Positions 17,063 through 56,871 are shown, numbered from the stretch's first letter. The stretch is 64,000 bases of DNA from Promethearchaeota archaeon (GCA_048939015.1 JBHLPW010000001.1:102655-166654); one strand, 5' to 3'. Program-made: numbers and translations. The notes: a model not told the origin generated them from the letters alone.

Positions 17063-17119
17063 TTGTGACTAAGTGTCGTGACTATTTAAATGTTTTTGTG
17101 TCATGACTATTAGTCACAA
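17063..17119. promoter_or_regulatory. Pair of inverted 20-bp operator sites
   Basis: TTGTGACTAAGTGTCGTGAC (17063-17082) and, on the minus strand, TTGTGACTAATAGTCATGAC (17100-17119); 17/20 identical; between divergent MTase and regulator genes. Confidence 0.7.
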
Positions 17120-17152: not shown

Positions 17153-18028
17153 ATGACAGCCAAAAAAACTGAAGATTTCATAAAAGCTTTAGAAATAGCA
17201 GGACTAACTCATGATGAAGCTTTGTTATATTTTGCTCTTATACAACATGGTAAAAAGGGAACATATATTAAAGATTTAACTGACCATATTGATATAAAAA
17301 GAACAACAATATACTCTATTGTTAATAGACTTCATGAAAAAGGTTATGTAAGAGAAAATCCTAATTATGAGGGACCTAAAGGTGCGAAAATGTATGCTGC
17401 TATAAGTCCCGAGTTATTTATAAATAGAATAGTCAATAATAAGAGAATTGAACTCGAAAAACTTGATAAAATTAAAAAGGAAGTAATAAATCAATTAGAA
17501 ACAATATATTTAGAGAGCTTAGAATTTTCTTTAGATGAAATTGATGATTTTTTAAAACCATATTTAGCTCCTCTCTATGATAAAGGCTGGAAGGTGATCG
17601 AACATTTAGTAGAAAAAAGTAAGATCACATATGGATTCGAAGCTTATGATACTACTCTCTTAGTTCCAGCTGCTAAACTTGTAAAAGATGCTGGATTTAT
17701 AGTGACTAAATACAACAGAGATGTTGAAAATGATGTAAATATTTTAAACTATATGTATGATATGCTTTCAAGAAAAGGTAAAGAAGAAATTTTAGATAAA
17801 GGTATCGGAGTAGTGGATGTTAAATTAATAGAAAGTGATATTGAGCTTAAAGGCAAAAAATTTAAGGGCCATTTACCTAAATTTAAATTTGAGCACACAA
17901 ATGAGTTTGTCCAACTAACTGAAAGCGTAATGATTCCAATTAAGGATAAAATCTTTTTCTTATGGGCAGAAAATCATAATATAATCGAGGAATTAGCTAA
18001 TGTAATATTTAATATTGAAGAGGATTAA
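17153..18028 (+). CDS. TrmB-like HTH regulator with uncharacterised C-terminal domain
   Basis: GLTHDEALLYFAL...IKRTTIYSIVNRL; C-terminal domain similar to 52127..53365 and 55960..56871. Confidence 0.82.
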   Translation: MTAKKTEDFIKALEIAGLTHDEALLYFALIQHGKKGTYIKDLTDHIDIKRTTIYSIVNRLHEKGYVRENPNYEGPKGAKMYAAISPELFINRIVNNKRIELEKLDKIKKEVINQLETIYLESLEFSLDEIDDFLKPYLAPLYDKGWKVIEHLVEKSKITYGFEAYDTTLLVPAAKLVKDAGFIVTKYNRDVENDVNILNYMYDMLSRKGKEEILDKGIGVVDVKLIESDIELKGKKFKGHLPKFKFEHTNEFVQLTESVMIPIKDKIFFLWAENHNIIEELANVIFNIEED

Positions 18029-50093: not shown

Positions 50094-50525
50094 TCATTCC
50101 TTTTTGTTAACTTTATCTGAATGATTATAATCATTATCTAAGAATTGATTTATTATTTTATCAATTTCCTTTCCAACATCAGAGGCCAAGCCAGGATGAT
50201 CTTCAACTGGAACATCAACTCCCATTATAGGCGTTAAGATCTTATCTTCTTCATCGATAACATCATATTCTTTTAAAATTTTTTTTTTTATTTCTATATC
50301 TTCATCATTCGATAACCAAAACATGCCTTTAGGACAATTAATTAAGATTTTAGTAACCAAATGAATCTGATAATGACAACTTGAACATTCATAATAATAT
50401 TCATCATCAAGTATTTTTTTGAATAATTCTGGATTTAACCATGTATTAATTGATGCTTCCCAGATAATTCGAAAAGATTTTTCACAGTGAGGACAAATTA
50501 TTTCTTCACTAGTTAAACGTGTCAT
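50094..50525 (-). CDS. CpXC-type zinc-ribbon protein
   Basis: CPHC...WEASIN...CSSC. Confidence 0.7.
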   Translation of the reverse strand: MTRLTSEEIICPHCEKSFRIIWEASINTWLNPELFKKILDDEYYYECSSCHYQIHLVTKILINCPKGMFWLSNDEDIEIKKKILKEYDVIDEEDKILTPIMGVDVPVEDHPGLASDVGKEIDKIINQFLDNDYNHSDKVNKKE

Positions 50526-50605: not shown

Positions 50606-50635
50606 TTGTCACCATTACGTGACAAGATTTAAATA
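50606..50635 (+). promoter_or_regulatory. Palindromic operator abutting the TATA box of the actin gene
   Basis: TTGTCAC-cattac-GTGACAA (50606-50625), then TTTAAATA at 50628-50635. Confidence 0.7.
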
Positions 50636-50690
50636 TTATTATTTTTATTCTAATTATAAAACAATAAAAAACAAAAGAGGTGGTTTTAAA

Positions 50691-51836
50691 ATTTCAGTCA
50701 ACGGGGATTTTAGAAAAAATAGAGCAATAGTTATAGATAATGGAACGGGAATTTCAAAAAATGGATTTGGAGGAGAGGATCAACCTCGTTCAGTATTCCC
50801 TACGGTCATTGGAAAACCAAAATATGGAAATATCATGCCTGATGTAAAGGATTATAGCCGAGAGTGGTATATCGGTGAGGAAGCTATGGAGTTGAAAGGA
50901 ATCATGAACTTACAGTTTCCAATTGAACATGGTGTTGTTGAAGATTGGCCCGCAATGGAAAGAATATACCACTATACATTTTATACTGATCTAAGGGTTG
51001 ATCCTTCAGAATTCCCAGTATTATTAACAGAAGCTCCTCTAAATCCGAGATCGAATAGAGAAAAAATGTCAGAAATAATGTTCGAAACATTTAATGTTCC
51101 TGCTCTTTATATTGCAACCCAAGCAGTCTTATCACTTTATTCTTCTGGTCGAACTACCGGATGTGTAGTAGATATTGGGGATGGAGTTGCACATATTGTA
51201 CCTATTTTTGAGGGATTTGCATTAAGTCATGCGATTCAACGAATAGATCTTGCAGGAAGAGATGTTACAACATATCTACAGAGACTATTACGTCAGAATG
51301 GATATTCTTTTTATACATCTGCAGAAAAGCAGATTGTAAGAGATATAAAAGAAAAACTTTGTTATGTTGCTATTGATCCAGAAAAAGAAATTTTACTTTC
51401 AAATAAGGTAGCAGGGATGGCTAAGAATTATATGCTTCCTGATGGCGAAACTGTTACAATTGGAGTTGAAAGATTTTTAGCTCCAGAATGTTTGTTTAAT
51501 CCTTCTGTAGTCGGGAAAGAATTAGCTCCTTTAGATGATGTTGTAGTTGGGTCAATATCTGAATGTGATGTTGATTTACGAAGAGAACTTTATAGTAATA
51601 TTGTCCTTTCAGGAGGCTCTACAATGTTTCCTGGTATTAAAGAGAGATTAACGCGAGAAATAAAAGAACAGATTCCTGAATCCATTGATGTAAAAATAAT
51701 AGCTCCACCTGAAAGAATGTATTCAGTATGGATTGGTGGATCTATTTTAAGCTCTCTAAAGACATTTGATAGAATGTGGGTTTCGAGGAGAGATTACAAG
51801 GAAATGGGTCCTCAAGTGATACATCGGTGTTTTTAA
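50691..51836 (+). CDS. Actin (lokiactin-like), probable ATT start
   Basis: IDNGTG, EAPLNP, GRTTG..VDIGDG, LPDG, SGGSTMFPG, SVWIGGSIL, C-terminal HRCF; GAGGTG SD at 50677-50682, 8 nt before ATT 50691. Confidence 0.95.
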   Translation: MSVNGDFRKNRAIVIDNGTGISKNGFGGEDQPRSVFPTVIGKPKYGNIMPDVKDYSREWYIGEEAMELKGIMNLQFPIEHGVVEDWPAMERIYHYTFYTDLRVDPSEFPVLLTEAPLNPRSNREKMSEIMFETFNVPALYIATQAVLSLYSSGRTTGCVVDIGDGVAHIVPIFEGFALSHAIQRIDLAGRDVTTYLQRLLRQNGYSFYTSAEKQIVRDIKEKLCYVAIDPEKEILLSNKVAGMAKNYMLPDGETVTIGVERFLAPECLFNPSVVGKELAPLDDVVVGSISECDVDLRRELYSNIVLSGGSTMFPGIKERLTREIKEQIPESIDVKIIAPPERMYSVWIGGSILSSLKTFDRMWVSRRDYKEMGPQVIHRCF

Positions 51837-51869: not shown

Positions 51870-52070
51870 ATAACAGTAAAAATAGAAATAATAGATGGTA
51901 TACCTTGCATTACGCTAGATGAAGGTATAATTTTATCTCAAAAAGATTTGAAAAGAAAATCAAATAAAATAATAATGCCAGAATTTTTCACAGAAATACA
52001 AGAATCTAAAGAAAAACAATATTATGATAAAGTATTGGATGAAATTAAAAAGAAATTTGGTGAAAAATAG
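51870..52070 (+). CDS. Small hypothetical protein (about 62-66 aa) between actin and the profilin-TrmB gene; non-AUG start
   Basis: GGGTGA SD at 51864-51869, then open frame ITVKIEIIDGIPCITLDEG...KKKFGEK*; exact start uncertain. Confidence 0.55.
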   Translation: MTVKIEIIDGIPCITLDEGIILSQKDLKRKSNKIIMPEFFTEIQESKEKQYYDKVLDEIKKKFGEK

Positions 52071-52126
52071 GCACAAAATCATTTTTTTTGTTAATTTAAT
52101 TATAAATGAAAGGTTGATTATAAATT

Positions 52127-53365
52127 ATGGAAAAAGTGACAGAAGTTCTAGATGAGTTAATAAAATCTGAATCAAAGACTATAGCAGCAGCAATAATTGA
52201 AGGAGAAAAAAAAATAGAATATTCAACTGAGAATTGGGATATTAGTGGCGACATTGATGAGATCAACTCAGTTTGGAAATCTAAAGAAAAAGGTACTCTG
52301 ATAATCTCAGATATTAAATATATAATTATCCAACGTACTCCTGAAAGATTAGTTGGGGTAGATCCTAATGAAAAAGGAGGAATTTTGGGATTTAAAGATG
52401 ATGAGAGGAAAATTATCTGTAAGATTGCTCCTGATGGATTAATGCGTCTTGGAATGATGGAAGCATCAAAAACTTTAAGTAAGTTAAGTTCAAAAAAACC
52501 ATATATGGATCTTGATACTCCATTAGGCAAAGTAGAAGAATTAAAGTGGGCAACTCCTAGAATACTTCTTGATGATACAAACAATTTGCAAGAGCTTGGG
52601 TTATTAAAATTCGGATTAAGTATTGAGGAAGCTAAGGTATATTTAGCATTATTAGAAAGTGGGAAAGAGGGAGCTAAAGTTGGTGAGTTGAATGAGGCTC
52701 TCTCTATTAAACGAACTACAATATATCGGATAATTGATCGTTTGATTAGTAAAGGTTGGATATTTAAATTACCATTGGTACCTAAGAGTGCTCAAGAATT
52801 TATTGCTAGACCCTTAAATGATATATTTGATGAAAGAATTCAGGAAAAAGAAGAAGAACTTAAGATTTTAAAGAGTTTTCGTTATATCATGGGTGAAACT
52901 CTTGAGAACGGATGGATAGATATCTCCCAAATAAAGAAAGAATTTCATCTATATAGTGAAAATTCATTTGATTTTAATTCTCTTGGAATTACTGGTAAAG
53001 AAAAGGATTGTGGTCTTATTATTTTTGAATATGATAAAAAAGTAGAGGAGGAAGTCATAATTAGAGCGGCATTGCAACTTTCTTTAGAAAAAATGAGAGA
53101 ACCAATACATCCTGATCTTAATATAAAAGAATTTACAATTCCCGATTTGGAAGACATTAAAATTGAGGATACAAAAATTCAAGACTACTTAGGTATGACA
53201 ATGTTTTTCAAGTTTAAAGATGGAACCAATACGGGAAATAATCTTGGATTAGATTGGATTGTAGCAGCTAGACATGTAGCTGTTCCTATTGATAATAAAA
53301 TTTATGTAGTATGGGGTTCTGAAGAGCAATTTCCAATTATATTGAGTATTATTTTAAAAATTTAA
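52127..53365 (+). CDS. Profilin-like domain fused to a TrmB-like HTH regulator
   Basis: aa 1-~125 AAAIIEG...STENWDISGD...IKYIIIQRTPERLVG...GGILG resembles Asgard profilins; aa ~155-230 FGLSIEEAKVYLAL...IKRTTIYRIIDRL; C-terminal domain with CGLIIFEY. Confidence 0.78.
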   Translation: MEKVTEVLDELIKSESKTIAAAIIEGEKKIEYSTENWDISGDIDEINSVWKSKEKGTLIISDIKYIIIQRTPERLVGVDPNEKGGILGFKDDERKIICKIAPDGLMRLGMMEASKTLSKLSSKKPYMDLDTPLGKVEELKWATPRILLDDTNNLQELGLLKFGLSIEEAKVYLALLESGKEGAKVGELNEALSIKRTTIYRIIDRLISKGWIFKLPLVPKSAQEFIARPLNDIFDERIQEKEEELKILKSFRYIMGETLENGWIDISQIKKEFHLYSENSFDFNSLGITGKEKDCGLIIFEYDKKVEEEVIIRAALQLSLEKMREPIHPDLNIKEFTIPDLEDIKIEDTKIQDYLGMTMFFKFKDGTNTGNNLGLDWIVAARHVAVPIDNKIYVVWGSEEQFPIILSIILKI

Positions 53366-53375
53366 GGTTTTTATT

Positions 53376-53930
53376 ATGACTGCGCAAATACCTGATGAAT
53401 TTATAATAAATGGCGAAATTTTTTCATTAGTAGGTTTAAAAGGTCAAGGATTATATAAACCTGAGGATTTTGGAATAAAACCTTTATTTAATTGCACTGC
53501 TTGTTGGCGAGGCTTTGTTATGAAATATATATTCATGGATAATAAATTATTCCTTAATGAATTACTTGTAAATGCTACTAATCTGCCAAAAATCAATAAT
53601 CTCAGCCCTGAAAACGGTAATGGGTTATTTAAATATCATTATAAAAATTTAAAGCTACAAACCAATTTTACTGGCAAAGTTCTTCTTGCAAAAGATTTTA
53701 TACAATCTATGTATGTTCACATGGGTTTTCAGAGACCAATGGCATTTAAGACGGTTATTGAAATTGAACTTAAACATGGAGAAATCATTAAATTGAAAGA
53801 TCTCTCTAAATGGATCGAGGAAAAAAGGAAAATTGATGTTAATAAAGGTGCAAAACCCGAAACTGACTCAAAGGAAGACATTGAGAGATGGGTCAAGCAA
53901 ACTTTTTCGCTTGATTATGATTTAAAGTAA
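53376..53930 (+). CDS. Conserved hypothetical protein (CTACWRG motif)
   Basis: MTAQIPD...CTACWRG...YVHMGF. Confidence 0.75.
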   Translation: MTAQIPDEFIINGEIFSLVGLKGQGLYKPEDFGIKPLFNCTACWRGFVMKYIFMDNKLFLNELLVNATNLPKINNLSPENGNGLFKYHYKNLKLQTNFTGKVLLAKDFIQSMYVHMGFQRPMAFKTVIEIELKHGEIIKLKDLSKWIEEKRKIDVNKGAKPETDSKEDIERWVKQTFSLDYDLK

Positions 53931-55116: not shown

Positions 55117-55821
55117 TTAGTACGTTTTATTATATACCTTGATATCAAAAAGATCGGTTTTTAATTCGTAATTATTTTTTAGATTTGATTGGTCTAATAT
55201 TTGCGTCAATTCTTTCGGTGTATATCCCGCATTAATCGAAGTCTTCCAGCCAATTCTCATAAATTTAGGTATAAACAATTTTACTATATGAAAAATTACT
55301 TTTGCTCCTAGTCCAATATCTCGACGACCATCAGAAATACAAAAAACTCCATGTGATTTCAAAACTCTAGAAATCTCGTTAAATATTTTTATAGGATTCT
55401 CCCAATGATGAAGGGTACCATTTCCAAAAACTAAATCAAATGAATTATCCAGAAATTGATACATATATTCAGCATTTCCATGAACATAAGAAATTTGCTG
55501 ATCGACACCTTCATCCTTTTTATTTTTATTAGCTACACGTATCATATCTTTAGAAAGTTCAAGTCCAATTATTTTTAATGAAGAATTTTGTTTTGCGATC
55601 AAAATTCCAATCCATCCTGGTCCTGGTCCAATCTCTAAAATTTTTGAGCCATCTTTGACATTAAATTTACTAAGTATAAATTTTATTAGACGTCGATATT
55701 CTCCTGCCATTTTTTTACACGCATTACTATATTCTTCTGTTGTGAAATCAATCTGATCTAATATTGCTTCCCCTTCGGGGATTCTTTCAATAATTTTTTT
55801 ACTTTTACTCATAACTATCAT
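55117..55821 (-). CDS. Class I SAM methyltransferase
   Basis: ILEIGPGPG; LHHWENP; start moved to ATG 55821 because the promoter lies in the extension. Confidence 0.88.
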   Translation of the reverse strand: MIVMSKSKKIIERIPEGEAILDQIDFTTEEYSNACKKMAGEYRRLIKFILSKFNVKDGSKILEIGPGPGWIGILIAKQNSSLKIIGLELSKDMIRVANKNKKDEGVDQQISYVHGNAEYMYQFLDNSFDLVFGNGTLHHWENPIKIFNEISRVLKSHGVFCISDGRRDIGLGAKVIFHIVKLFIPKFMRIGWKTSINAGYTPKELTQILDQSNLKNNYELKTDLFDIKVYNKTY

Positions 55822-55885: not shown

Positions 55886-55917
55886 TTGTCGTCCAATCTC
55901 GACAACATATTTATATA
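55886..55917. promoter_or_regulatory. Palindromic operator TTGTC-N10-GACAA between divergent TATA boxes
   Basis: TTGTCG-tccaatct-CGACAA (55886-55905); TTTATATA at 55910-55917; TATTTAAATA at 55868-55877. Confidence 0.65.
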
Positions 55918-55959: not shown

Positions 55960-56871
55960 ATGAAAAATAAGGAAAAAGAAGTATTTAATCAAAATTTACA
56001 AGAGTTTGGTTTGACTGCTGAAGAAGCTATAGTCTATTTAACACTTTTAGAAAGGGGACGTAATGGGGATATGGTTGGAAGATTAAAAAATGATCTTCAA
56101 ATTGCACGCACAACTTTATATGGAATATTAGAAAAACTAAGAGAAAAAGGTTGGATTGAAATAGTAGAAATTAGAAAGCAACCTCGAAGGATGAAATTCA
56201 TAGCTAAAGCCCCCTTGGAAGTTTTAAATAAAACTGTTGAAAATTTAGAACTAAAAGTTAAGACTCTTAAAGAAAAGAGATTGTATATTGGGGATAATCT
56301 AGATAAATTATATCAAGAAAAAAAAGAGTTGACGATTGATACAATTCATCCTGGTTCTCAGAAATACATAAAGCCACTTTTTGCTAAAAAATGGAAAGTA
56401 AAATCAGAAGTTATTGAAACCTCAGAATCTCTAGCTCGAATAGTATATGACTATGAACTAATCGGCTATAAAGAAAGATTTACGCAGGAATGCGGTCTTA
56501 TTATTTTCGAGTATAATTACAGTAGAAATATAGAGAATGATGATAATTTAATTCGAGCCAATTTAAATCTTCTAAAAAGCAAAACAGAATATGAAATAAG
56601 AAATAAAGCTAAAAATAATGAAATACCAGATTTTGAAGATGTAAAACTTGAAGATACTGAATTGGATGGTTTTTTAGGAGCATTTGTATATATTAAATTT
56701 AAAGAAGGTTCAATTGTTAGAAATTTAACTAAAGAAGAATGGGTTTTGATTGGAAAAGAAGCAGCAATTCCTACTAAAAATAAAATATTTCTAATTCATG
56801 GCGAGGATAAAAACTTTCAATTTTTAGAAGATACCATTATTAATACTGAAAATTTTCATCATTTAATATGA
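55960..56871 (+). CDS. TrmB-like HTH regulator (paralog of 17153 and 52127)
   Basis: FGLTAEEAIVYLTL...ARTTLYGILEKL; CGLIIFEY domain. Confidence 0.85.
   Translation: MKNKEKEVFNQNLQEFGLTAEEAIVYLTLLERGRNGDMVGRLKNDLQIARTTLYGILEKLREKGWIEIVEIRKQPRRMKFIAKAPLEVLNKTVENLELKVKTLKEKRLYIGDNLDKLYQEKKELTIDTIHPGSQKYIKPLFAKKWKVKSEVIETSESLARIVYDYELIGYKERFTQECGLIIFEYNYSRNIENDDNLIRANLNLLKSKTEYEIRNKAKNNEIPDFEDVKLEDTELDGFLGAFVYIKFKEGSIVRNLTKEEWVLIGKEAAIPTKNKIFLIHGEDKNFQFLEDTIINTENFHHLI

Follow-up and report, generated by a model that had tools for sequence, protein, structure and literature searches.

The promoter of an accessory actin gene in a Promethearchaeota archaeon carries an inverted repeat, TGTCAC-N6-GTGACA, that is likely to be the dedicated, single-copy operator of a profilin-TrmB fusion protein encoded 1.5 kb downstream, and actin itself may take part in the control. 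We show the sequences themselves, that they are unique and conserved, and that they occur together with the regulators; binding by the fusion, the sign of regulation and the sensing of actin are inferred. We refer to the whole 64,000-nucleotide stretch of DNA that we analysed (JBHLPW010000001.1:102655-166654) as the window. The cassette within it runs in the order operator, TATA box, Shine-Dalgarno element, actin gene, small open reading frame (ORF), oligo-T run, fusion gene and gene for a 184-aa protein. These features and the neighbouring divergent gene are as follows.

50094 to 50525, divergent from actin: CpXC gene (Pfam).
50606 to 50625, no strand assigned: actin-promoter operator, read in the sequence as TTGTCAC-CATTAC-GTGACAA.
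50628 to 50635, plus strand: TATA box TTTAAATA of the cassette actin, read in the sequence; promoter function inferred, no RNA data.
50677 to 50683, plus strand: Shine-Dalgarno-like GAGGTGG, 7 nt before the ATT start.
50691 to 51836, plus strand: cassette (accessory) actin, 381 aa (Pfam Actin, E 3.5e-128; PDB actins, E 1e-157 to 1e-177).
51870 to 52070, plus strand: small ORF of ~66 codons, with a homologous ORF (...DGIPCI...ESKE..YY.KVLDEIKKKFGEK) in 13 of 16 cassettes.
52082 to 52089, plus strand: oligo-T run of eight (T8), separating the small ORF from the regulator gene.
52127 to 53365, plus strand: profilin-TrmB fusion, 412 aa (matches to PF01978 and to profilins), ~1.5 kb downstream of the operator.
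53376 to 53930, plus strand: conserved 184-aa protein, following the regulator in 11 of 16 cassettes (synteny).

The operator core is an 18-bp inverted repeat at 50607 to 50624, and the outer T and A that flank it vary among the 16 cassettes of the genus. Two nucleotides, GA, lie between the 50606-50625 palindrome and TTTAAATA; the gap from the core to the TATA box is 3 nt, so that the BRE position overlaps the right arm. The preliminary description had placed this palindrome, and a second one considered below, 2 nt and 4 nt before their TATA boxes, had quoted the recognition helices IKRTTIYRI (52127) and ARTTLYGI (55960), and had suggested that a site over the BRE would fit activation or repression. 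On reading the sequence we found both palindromes, both distances and both helix strings to be as described, and the BRE position held as geometry, the sign of regulation being inferred. No BRE consensus could be derived for the window's genome, which showed just a slight preference for A at -3. That the TATA box is a working promoter element is likewise an inference, with no RNA data and no mapped transcription start.

TGTCAC-N6-GTGACA is present in a single copy in the window's genome, and no copy with one mismatch was found anywhere in that genome. It holds 29 copies with two mismatches. We considered these as further targets and rejected them, as none of the 29 abuts a TATA box.

We looked across 54 congeneric genomes for the exact core, using the reversed pattern as a control. 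The core was present once in 17 genomes and absent from the other 37, and the reversed control was found in none of the 54. Sixteen of the 17 copies sit just upstream of a cassette actin, and an independent protein search recovered the full-length fusion in exactly those 16 genomes; the core was missing from 37 of the 38 genomes that lack a full-length fusion. The 17th copy lies on a 2.4-kb contig of G060 that carries no actin, and it is likely to be either a chance match or an assembly fragment. When we read the promoters of canonical actins, we found no exact motif: in each cassette genome the motif occurs once, at the cassette actin.

The same arrangement is kept in all four distant metagenomic cassettes, whose fusions are 47 to 53% identical to that of the window. 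Two of the four have an exact core, a third departs from it at one base (TGTCAT) and the fourth reads TGTGAT-N6-GTGACA; an extra TGTCAC half-site lies by the TATA box in two of them, one with an exact core and the one with the TGTGAT arm. Overall, fusions only 40 to 53% identical to that of the window retain the site, either exactly or with one or two changes plus an extra half-site. The prediction that the site would be conserved upstream of orthologous, fusion-linked actins thus held in 16 of 16 genus cassettes and 4 of 4 distant ones. It follows from these results that the proposed use of the actin palindrome by the fusion as its operator is supported in silico, physical binding still being inferred.

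We also scanned 185,579 species genomes (596 Gb) for the composite of operator and TATA box, TGTCAC-N6-GTGACA-N3-TTTAAATA. It occurred 20 times. Eighteen of the matches lay 54 to 192 nt before an actin gene, and wherever the locus reached far enough, the fusion was present after that actin. Of the other two, one lies at the end of a Promethearchaeota contig and one in a Lachnospiraceae genome, about as many as chance would give. The composite is a practical marker of the cassette, with almost no false positives across sequenced prokaryote genomes.

Two cautions apply to these counts. The matches listed for the genus and those of the all-species scan were collected by means of the exact pattern itself, which makes them partly circular. 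The evidence that escapes this circularity is that the genomes defined independently by the fusion all carry the core and that matches nearly always precede an actin gene. In addition, the 16 cassette genomes are not independent trials, because co-occurrence partly reflects inheritance of a single cassette.

Alignment of the 16 cassette promoters showed which positions are held fixed. Both arms were identical in every pairwise comparison (100%), and the TATA octamer was 88% identical; identity fell to 45% in the spacer, of which there are 15 versions, and was again 45% in the upstream flank. Fixed arms around a varying spacer are the signature of a site bound by a dimer. The TTTAAATA octamer stands at the same offset in 14 of the 16 genus cassettes; of the exceptions, G047 has TTTATATA, and in G021 the offset is displaced by 3 nt.

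The distance from the TATA box to the actin start codon is 53 to 60 nt, or about 175 to 192 nt in other cassettes. We observed that the operator and TATA box lie 175 to 200 nt before the actin start, rather than ~55 nt, in about a third of cassettes; those with the long spacing are G047, G065, G021, G063 and G069 in the genus, together with L124, L130, L131 and L140. The long spacing may imply a partly conserved 5' leader (...AAAAAGTTTTGTTAAA...) or an insertion.

A referee might ask whether the palindrome is a protein-binding site at all. It could instead be a structural or recombination element at the left edge of a mobile cassette, or the hairpin terminator of a neighbouring gene. In favour of this explanation, the cassettes occupy differing genomic neighbourhoods and the operator is the first conserved element in them, and a simple terminator scan lists the palindrome as a stem-loop. 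Against it, the genome holds no second copy with which the palindrome could pair, even allowing one mismatch; the TATA box stands at a constant distance from the palindrome in 14 of 16 cassettes; and a varying spacer between fixed arms is unlike an RNA stem with a functional loop. Nor does the terminator reading fit the surroundings: both palindromes scanned as stems, but the T-runs after them are not conserved and the upstream genes vary, and this candidate was rejected. We consider the structural explanation very unlikely and keep to the operator.

The preliminary description had allowed that the site might control the divergent CpXC gene instead of actin. This alternative failed and was rejected, as no more than 8 of the 16 cassettes have CpXC next to them.

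The target had been called simply actin. That identity held, with the correction that the gene is an accessory paralogue with an ATT start at 50691. Most genomes of the genus encode a single actin that hardly varies among them and begins with ATG (MAEEE...), and the fusion-bearing genomes have a second actin in addition, directly upstream of the fusion. The window's actin is 84% identical to the genus-wide actin and 83 to 96% identical to the other cassette actins; it is a spare copy and not the housekeeping gene. We did not find the genus-wide ATG-start actin in the window's own assembly (G000), which is 94.9% complete; the other actin matches there were two actin-related proteins only, at ~40% identity. 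Either the assembly misses the housekeeping actin or the spare actin is this organism's sole conventional one; both are possible.

The start codon of the cassette actin was assigned to the ATT at 50691-50693, and the GTG at 50619 merely heads the longest ORF (50619-51836). This assignment was made because of in-frame stops at the orthologous loci, which lie 6 to 21 nt upstream in 9 of 16 loci and 6 to 42 nt upstream in 12 of 16, with no ATG, GTG or TTG between those stops and the actin start. The next canonical start in the cassette actins is usually codon 49, beyond the essential DNGTG loop. A Shine-Dalgarno-like GGTG core precedes the start in all 16 cassettes, most of them having GAGGTGG, and the distant cassette L123 has TTG at the codon where the window's actin has ATT. 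A weak start codon on a transcriptionally controlled actin raises the possibility of a second, translational layer of control.

Between actin and the regulator, the small ORF has ATG or GTG starts in relatives; in the window's genome that place is occupied by ACA-GTA, with no canonical start, which might reflect an odd start or decay. It is followed, at the position of 52082, by a T run of at least 5 and usually 8 to 14 nt in every one of the 16 cassettes, which could be a partial archaeal terminator, its role being inferred. Beyond the regulator, the 184-aa protein matched no Pfam family and no PDB fold; the atlas clusters closest to it consist of bacterial proteins without a name, and its AlphaFold model is rich in beta structure (pLDDT 73).

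We also observed remnants of the fusion gene. G005 (L032, G005:C4 7026-7346) and G054 (C1:80514-80813) retain just the last ~100 fusion codons, interrupted by stops, and have neither a cassette actin nor the operator. We read both as cassettes that have decayed. Next to the remnant in G005, the methyltransferase genes and the 55960-type regulator are intact.

The fusion consists of a profilin domain (residues ~1-106), a flexible linker, a TrmB winged helix-turn-helix (wHTH; 159-214), a long helix (230-255) and a C-terminal alpha/beta domain. Residues 159-214 matched PF01978 at 45.7 bits against a Pfam gathering score of 25.6. A phmmer search of the N-terminus against the PDB returned 5yed and 5yee (E 2.5e-9), 5zzb (4e-9), 5zza (2e-6) and 7pbh (2e-4). 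The sequence match to Loki profilin-1 and -2 spans the first ~85 to 100 residues and the fold alignment ~130; the best Foldseek matches of the N-terminal domain were LokiProfilin1 and 2 (5yee, 5zzb; E 1e-8, target TM 0.73 to 0.76), with eukaryotic profilins next in the list. The Pfam profilin model did not match this domain, and because it is silent the profilin identity rests on the PDB sequence matches and the predicted fold.

Confidence in the AlphaFold model of the fusion was uneven, with a pLDDT of 62 for the whole model, ~80 for the profilin domain and below 50 over residues 107-281. The wHTH, the linker and the helix after the wHTH are thus low-confidence; that helix (230-255), where a TrmB-type dimerisation helix would sit, is predicted at a pLDDT below 50. 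We looked for the sugar-binding C-terminal domain of TrmB, TrmBL1 and Tgr in residues 255-412 of the fusion and 110-303 of its paralogue 55960 and found no Pfam match at E values up to 5. Both proteins have a TrmB-like DNA-binding head on a different body and are not sugar-sensing TrmB proteins. The recognition helix, KRT[TH]IYRI, is invariant in the 16 orthologues, and the profilin part is the least conserved portion of the fusion. Whether a genome has the KRTT or the KRTH variant showed no clear pattern of covariation with the operator arms.

The fusion always lies downstream of the operator-bearing actin, in the 16 genus cassettes as in the distant metagenomic ones. It is the only DNA-binding protein of the cassette, and this, together with the single target per genome, fits a local regulator encoded in the cassette itself. 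The fusion family comprises at least 165 clusters of full-length relatives in public data, where they are annotated merely as helix-turn-helix proteins of Promethearchaeota. Our literature searches aimed at the fusion turned up no publication on either the protein or its operator.

We modelled residues 1-140 of the fusion in complex with the cassette actin. The best control scored 0.00 and the model 0.70, a mark that 58 of 80 solved complexes attain, as do 2 of 110 mismatched pairs. Contact agreement between runs was at least 97%, the partner pLDDT was at least 81, and the interface was the barbed-end cleft of actin. It is possible that this prediction echoes the solved Loki profilin-actin complexes (5YEE/5ZZB) and does not report binding by this copy.

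The evidence on the profilin head bears on a rival explanation, in which the fusion does bind the operator, the signal is a small molecule or another partner acting through the C-terminal domain and not actin, and the profilin head serves in localisation, in poly-proline binding or in nothing. Three observations favour it: a paralogue with the same C-terminal domain has a comparable operator and no profilin head; characterised TrmB proteins sense ligands via their C-terminal domain (PMC4158304); and the profilin part is where conservation is weakest. Against it, the fusion always adjoins an actin gene, the profilin fold is intact, and the complex model places the domain on the usual face of actin at a score far above control, though with the reservation just given about the solved complexes. 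We judge this rival unlikely as a whole. It remains possible that the uncharacterised C-terminal domain binds an unrelated ligand that is the real signal, and the case for actin sensing, which is inferred, rests on the intact profilin fold, the fixed linkage to actin and the complex model.

The second palindrome named in the preliminary description belongs to a paralogue of the fusion, and a third TrmB-like gene also lies in the window.

17153 to 18028: third TrmB-like paralogue, 291 aa, recognition helix IKRTTIYSI.
55117 to 55813, minus strand: SAM-dependent methyltransferase (Pfam methyltransferase domains).
55886 to 55905, no strand assigned: second operator, TTGTCG-TCCAATCT-CGACAA (TTGTCG-N8-CGACAA), between the divergent methyltransferase and 55960 genes.
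55910 to 55917, plus strand: TATA-like TTTATATA of the paralogue gene, 4 nt (CATA) after the second operator.
55960 to 56871, plus strand: paralogous TrmB-like regulator, 303 aa, without a profilin head (PF01978, 43.0 bits).

The methyltransferase frame is open to 55908, and from our reading of the sequence the gene probably starts at the ATG at 55813. Over its residues 12-294, the 55960 protein matches residues 153-410 of the fusion at 33% identity (E 5e-37); the fusion is a profilin domain joined to a complete 55960-type regulator.

TTGTCG-N8-CGACAA occurred once per genome in all five genomes that have a 55960 orthologue of at least 80% identity, and in all five it lay 4 nt before TTTATATA. 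Elsewhere in the genus this pattern gave one intragenic match, in a coding region of G061, which is likely due to chance; the reversed control gave two. In orthologues at ~50% identity, of which two are in the genus and one lies beside a distant cassette, this position is taken by TTGTCA-N8-TGACA[AT]. The recognition helices (IKRTTIYRI in the fusion, IARTTLYGI in the 55960 type and IGRTTIYAI in the ~50% orthologues) group as the operators do, with a common RTT.Y core. More distant paralogues have palindromes of the TGTGTC/GACACA type 3 nt before the TATA boxes of their own genes, and the 17153 gene of the window belongs to this group. The 55960 protein is likely to be autoregulated from the second operator and to co-control the divergent methyltransferase from it, binding again being inferred.

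The claim that the actin and 55960 promoters carry the same palindrome held in part. The frame TGTC-N10-GACA is common to both, and we propose that it is shared because the regulators are paralogous, but the inner arm bases differ consistently: all 16 cassettes of the genus, and most of those further away, have TGTCAC, whereas the site of the paralogue has TTGTCG or TTGTCA. The two sites are likely to be related but distinct operators, each with its own regulator, and cross-binding is unlikely. The third paralogue has conserved repeats of its own at its own promoter, which suggests a private operator for each family member. We note that its palindrome spans 17096-17119, with repeats (TTGTGTCATGAC...GTCACAA) around its TATA box and a GTGAC...GTGTC...GTGAC group just upstream.

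The preliminary description had also proposed a genome-wide scan for TTGTC-N10-GACAA, with a background frequency counting as refutation. Within the window there are two matches against 0.05 expected, the pattern having been chosen post hoc. Across the genome (4.86 Mb, 29.9% G+C) we found 3 matches against ~4.5 expected from base composition, other spacings giving 0 to 5, so the expected enrichment failed; this was the sole in-silico refutation test not passed. The third match, on contig C59, has one good arm and lies in a gap between two same-strand genes with no abutting TATA box; it is likely a chance occurrence. The signal above chance belongs to the refined motif pair and not to the loose pattern.

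The likeness of the two sites leaves room for another rival, that the 55960 or 17153 protein reads the actin palindrome, with one small regulon formed with or without the fusion. The outer TTGTC/GACAA arms and the 20-bp frame common to both sites favour it, as does the RTT.Y core common to the recognition helices. Against it, a 55960 orthologue (at least 50% identity) is present in only 5 of the 16 cassette genomes, all 16 of which have the operator, a distribution that rules out the 55960 protein as the one that reads the actin site in general. The inner arm bases separate the two operator classes consistently, and G005 has a 55960 orthologue and its operator but no actin cassette and no TGTCAC site. 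We regard this rival as very unlikely, and we continue with the fusion as the reader of the actin operator.

A further observation concerns origin. In the distant cassette L123 (3501-6686, a metagenomic contig) two genes come directly after the fusion: a divergent methyltransferase and a TrmB-like gene of 300 aa whose operator is TTGTCA-N8-TGACA. The window has the same pair of genes, 2.5 kb beyond its fusion. A duplication of the neighbouring regulator gene, together with capture of a profilin gene, may have given rise to the fusion.

In the mechanism that we propose, a dimer of the fusion would read the two arms with its winged-helix heads (recognition helix KRTTIYRI), and the promoter-proximal monomer would sit on the BRE, where TFB must dock. 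The bound fusion would exclude TFB and repress the spare-actin promoter. The N-terminal profilin domain would bind monomeric actin and alter occupancy of the operator, so that output of the spare actin would follow the actin pool. We lean, weakly, towards the actin-loaded form as the repressing one, which would give negative feedback.

Of these steps, repression by exclusion of TFB is an inference that we favour by a modest margin. It is favoured because the paralogues have the same layout at the promoters of their own genes, a setting in which regulators usually repress themselves, because the TATA box is a strong, invariant consensus, and because actin is additionally throttled by its non-AUG start. 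In the TrmB family, whether a site represses or activates depends on its position, and autoregulation has been described (PMC4158304, PMC4706686): sites downstream of the TATA box repress, and sites upstream of the BRE/TATA can activate (PMC4158304). In vitro, TrmBL1 repressed nine of nine downstream templates and activated two of three upstream ones (PMC4706686). Our choice is a weak one because upstream sites activate in TrmBL1, and activation from the upstream position is the main alternative and a serious one, to which we give clearly less credence than to repression.

The suggestion that the fusion closes an autoregulatory loop is partly open to doubt, since an oligo-T run lies between actin and fusion in every cassette. 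Given this conserved run, the fusion may not be transcribed from the regulated promoter, and the loop would then run only via the actin protein. Without RNA data, transcription of the fusion from the regulated promoter and from a promoter of its own after the oligo-T are both possible.

A bolder reading, for which we find the evidence evenly poised, is that Loki-type Asgard archaea have a feedback from the cytoskeleton to a gene, in which a DNA-bound regulator gauges monomeric actin and sets transcription of the second actin gene from a single dedicated operator. If true, it would be a prokaryotic counterpart, assembled from different parts, of the eukaryotic control of transcription by G-actin. 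On this reading the profilin-less paralogue would represent the ancestral state, the sensor having been built by domain fusion, and the system would illustrate clearly how a one-component regulator can acquire a protein sensor in this way. To our knowledge, how Asgard archaea regulate their eukaryote-like cytoskeleton genes has not been established, and if binding proves to depend on actin, we are aware of no earlier case in which the state of a prokaryotic cytoskeleton is read out at a promoter. With an exact 18-bp site, one regulator and one target promoter defined, binding can be tested directly.

The cis-element is itself a TrmB-type operator; what is new is the system, a one-component regulator with a putative protein-binding sensor head and a cytoskeletal target, both binding and sensing being inferred. 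In the TrmB family, dimers recognise inverted repeats; in Pyrococcus, TrmB occupies the BRE/TATA of malE (TACT-N3-AGTA) and represses, and TrmBL1 and Tgr read TATCAC-N5-GTGATA (PMC4158304). The cassette resembles TrmBL1/Tgr and the glycolytic motif of Thermococcales in having a PF01978 winged helix and an inverted repeat at or beside the BRE/TATA. It differs from them in one base of the half-site (TGTCAC rather than TATCAC), in a spacer of 6 nt rather than 5, and in having one target per genome in place of a sugar-metabolism regulon; the fusion has an N-terminal profilin domain, an actin target and no detectable TrmB sugar-binding C-terminal domain.

The profilin head is alike in fold to the stand-alone Asgard profilins (Loki profilin-1 and -2 and Odin profilin; 5YED, 5YEE, 5ZZB, 5ZZA) and docks, in the complex model, on the actin face that they use. 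As free proteins of 120 to 140 aa, those profilins regulate filament assembly, whereas here the domain is the head of a DNA-binding protein. In animals, MRTF (MAL)-SRF is a system in which a regulator binds actin monomers, actin genes are among the targets and G-actin feeds back on their transcription. The logic that we propose for the fusion resembles it by analogy, sensing being unproven here, and the parts are unrelated: MRTF-SRF relies on RPEL motifs, nuclear import and export and the SRF MADS box, and no homology is implied. Local repressors of the MarR and TetR style offer a likeness in design, with a single high-affinity palindrome by the regulator's own cluster and a dimeric winged helix. 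The cassette differs from these in that its promoter is an archaeal BRE/TATA and not a sigma-70 promoter, and in that the presumed signal is a protein, actin, and not a small molecule.
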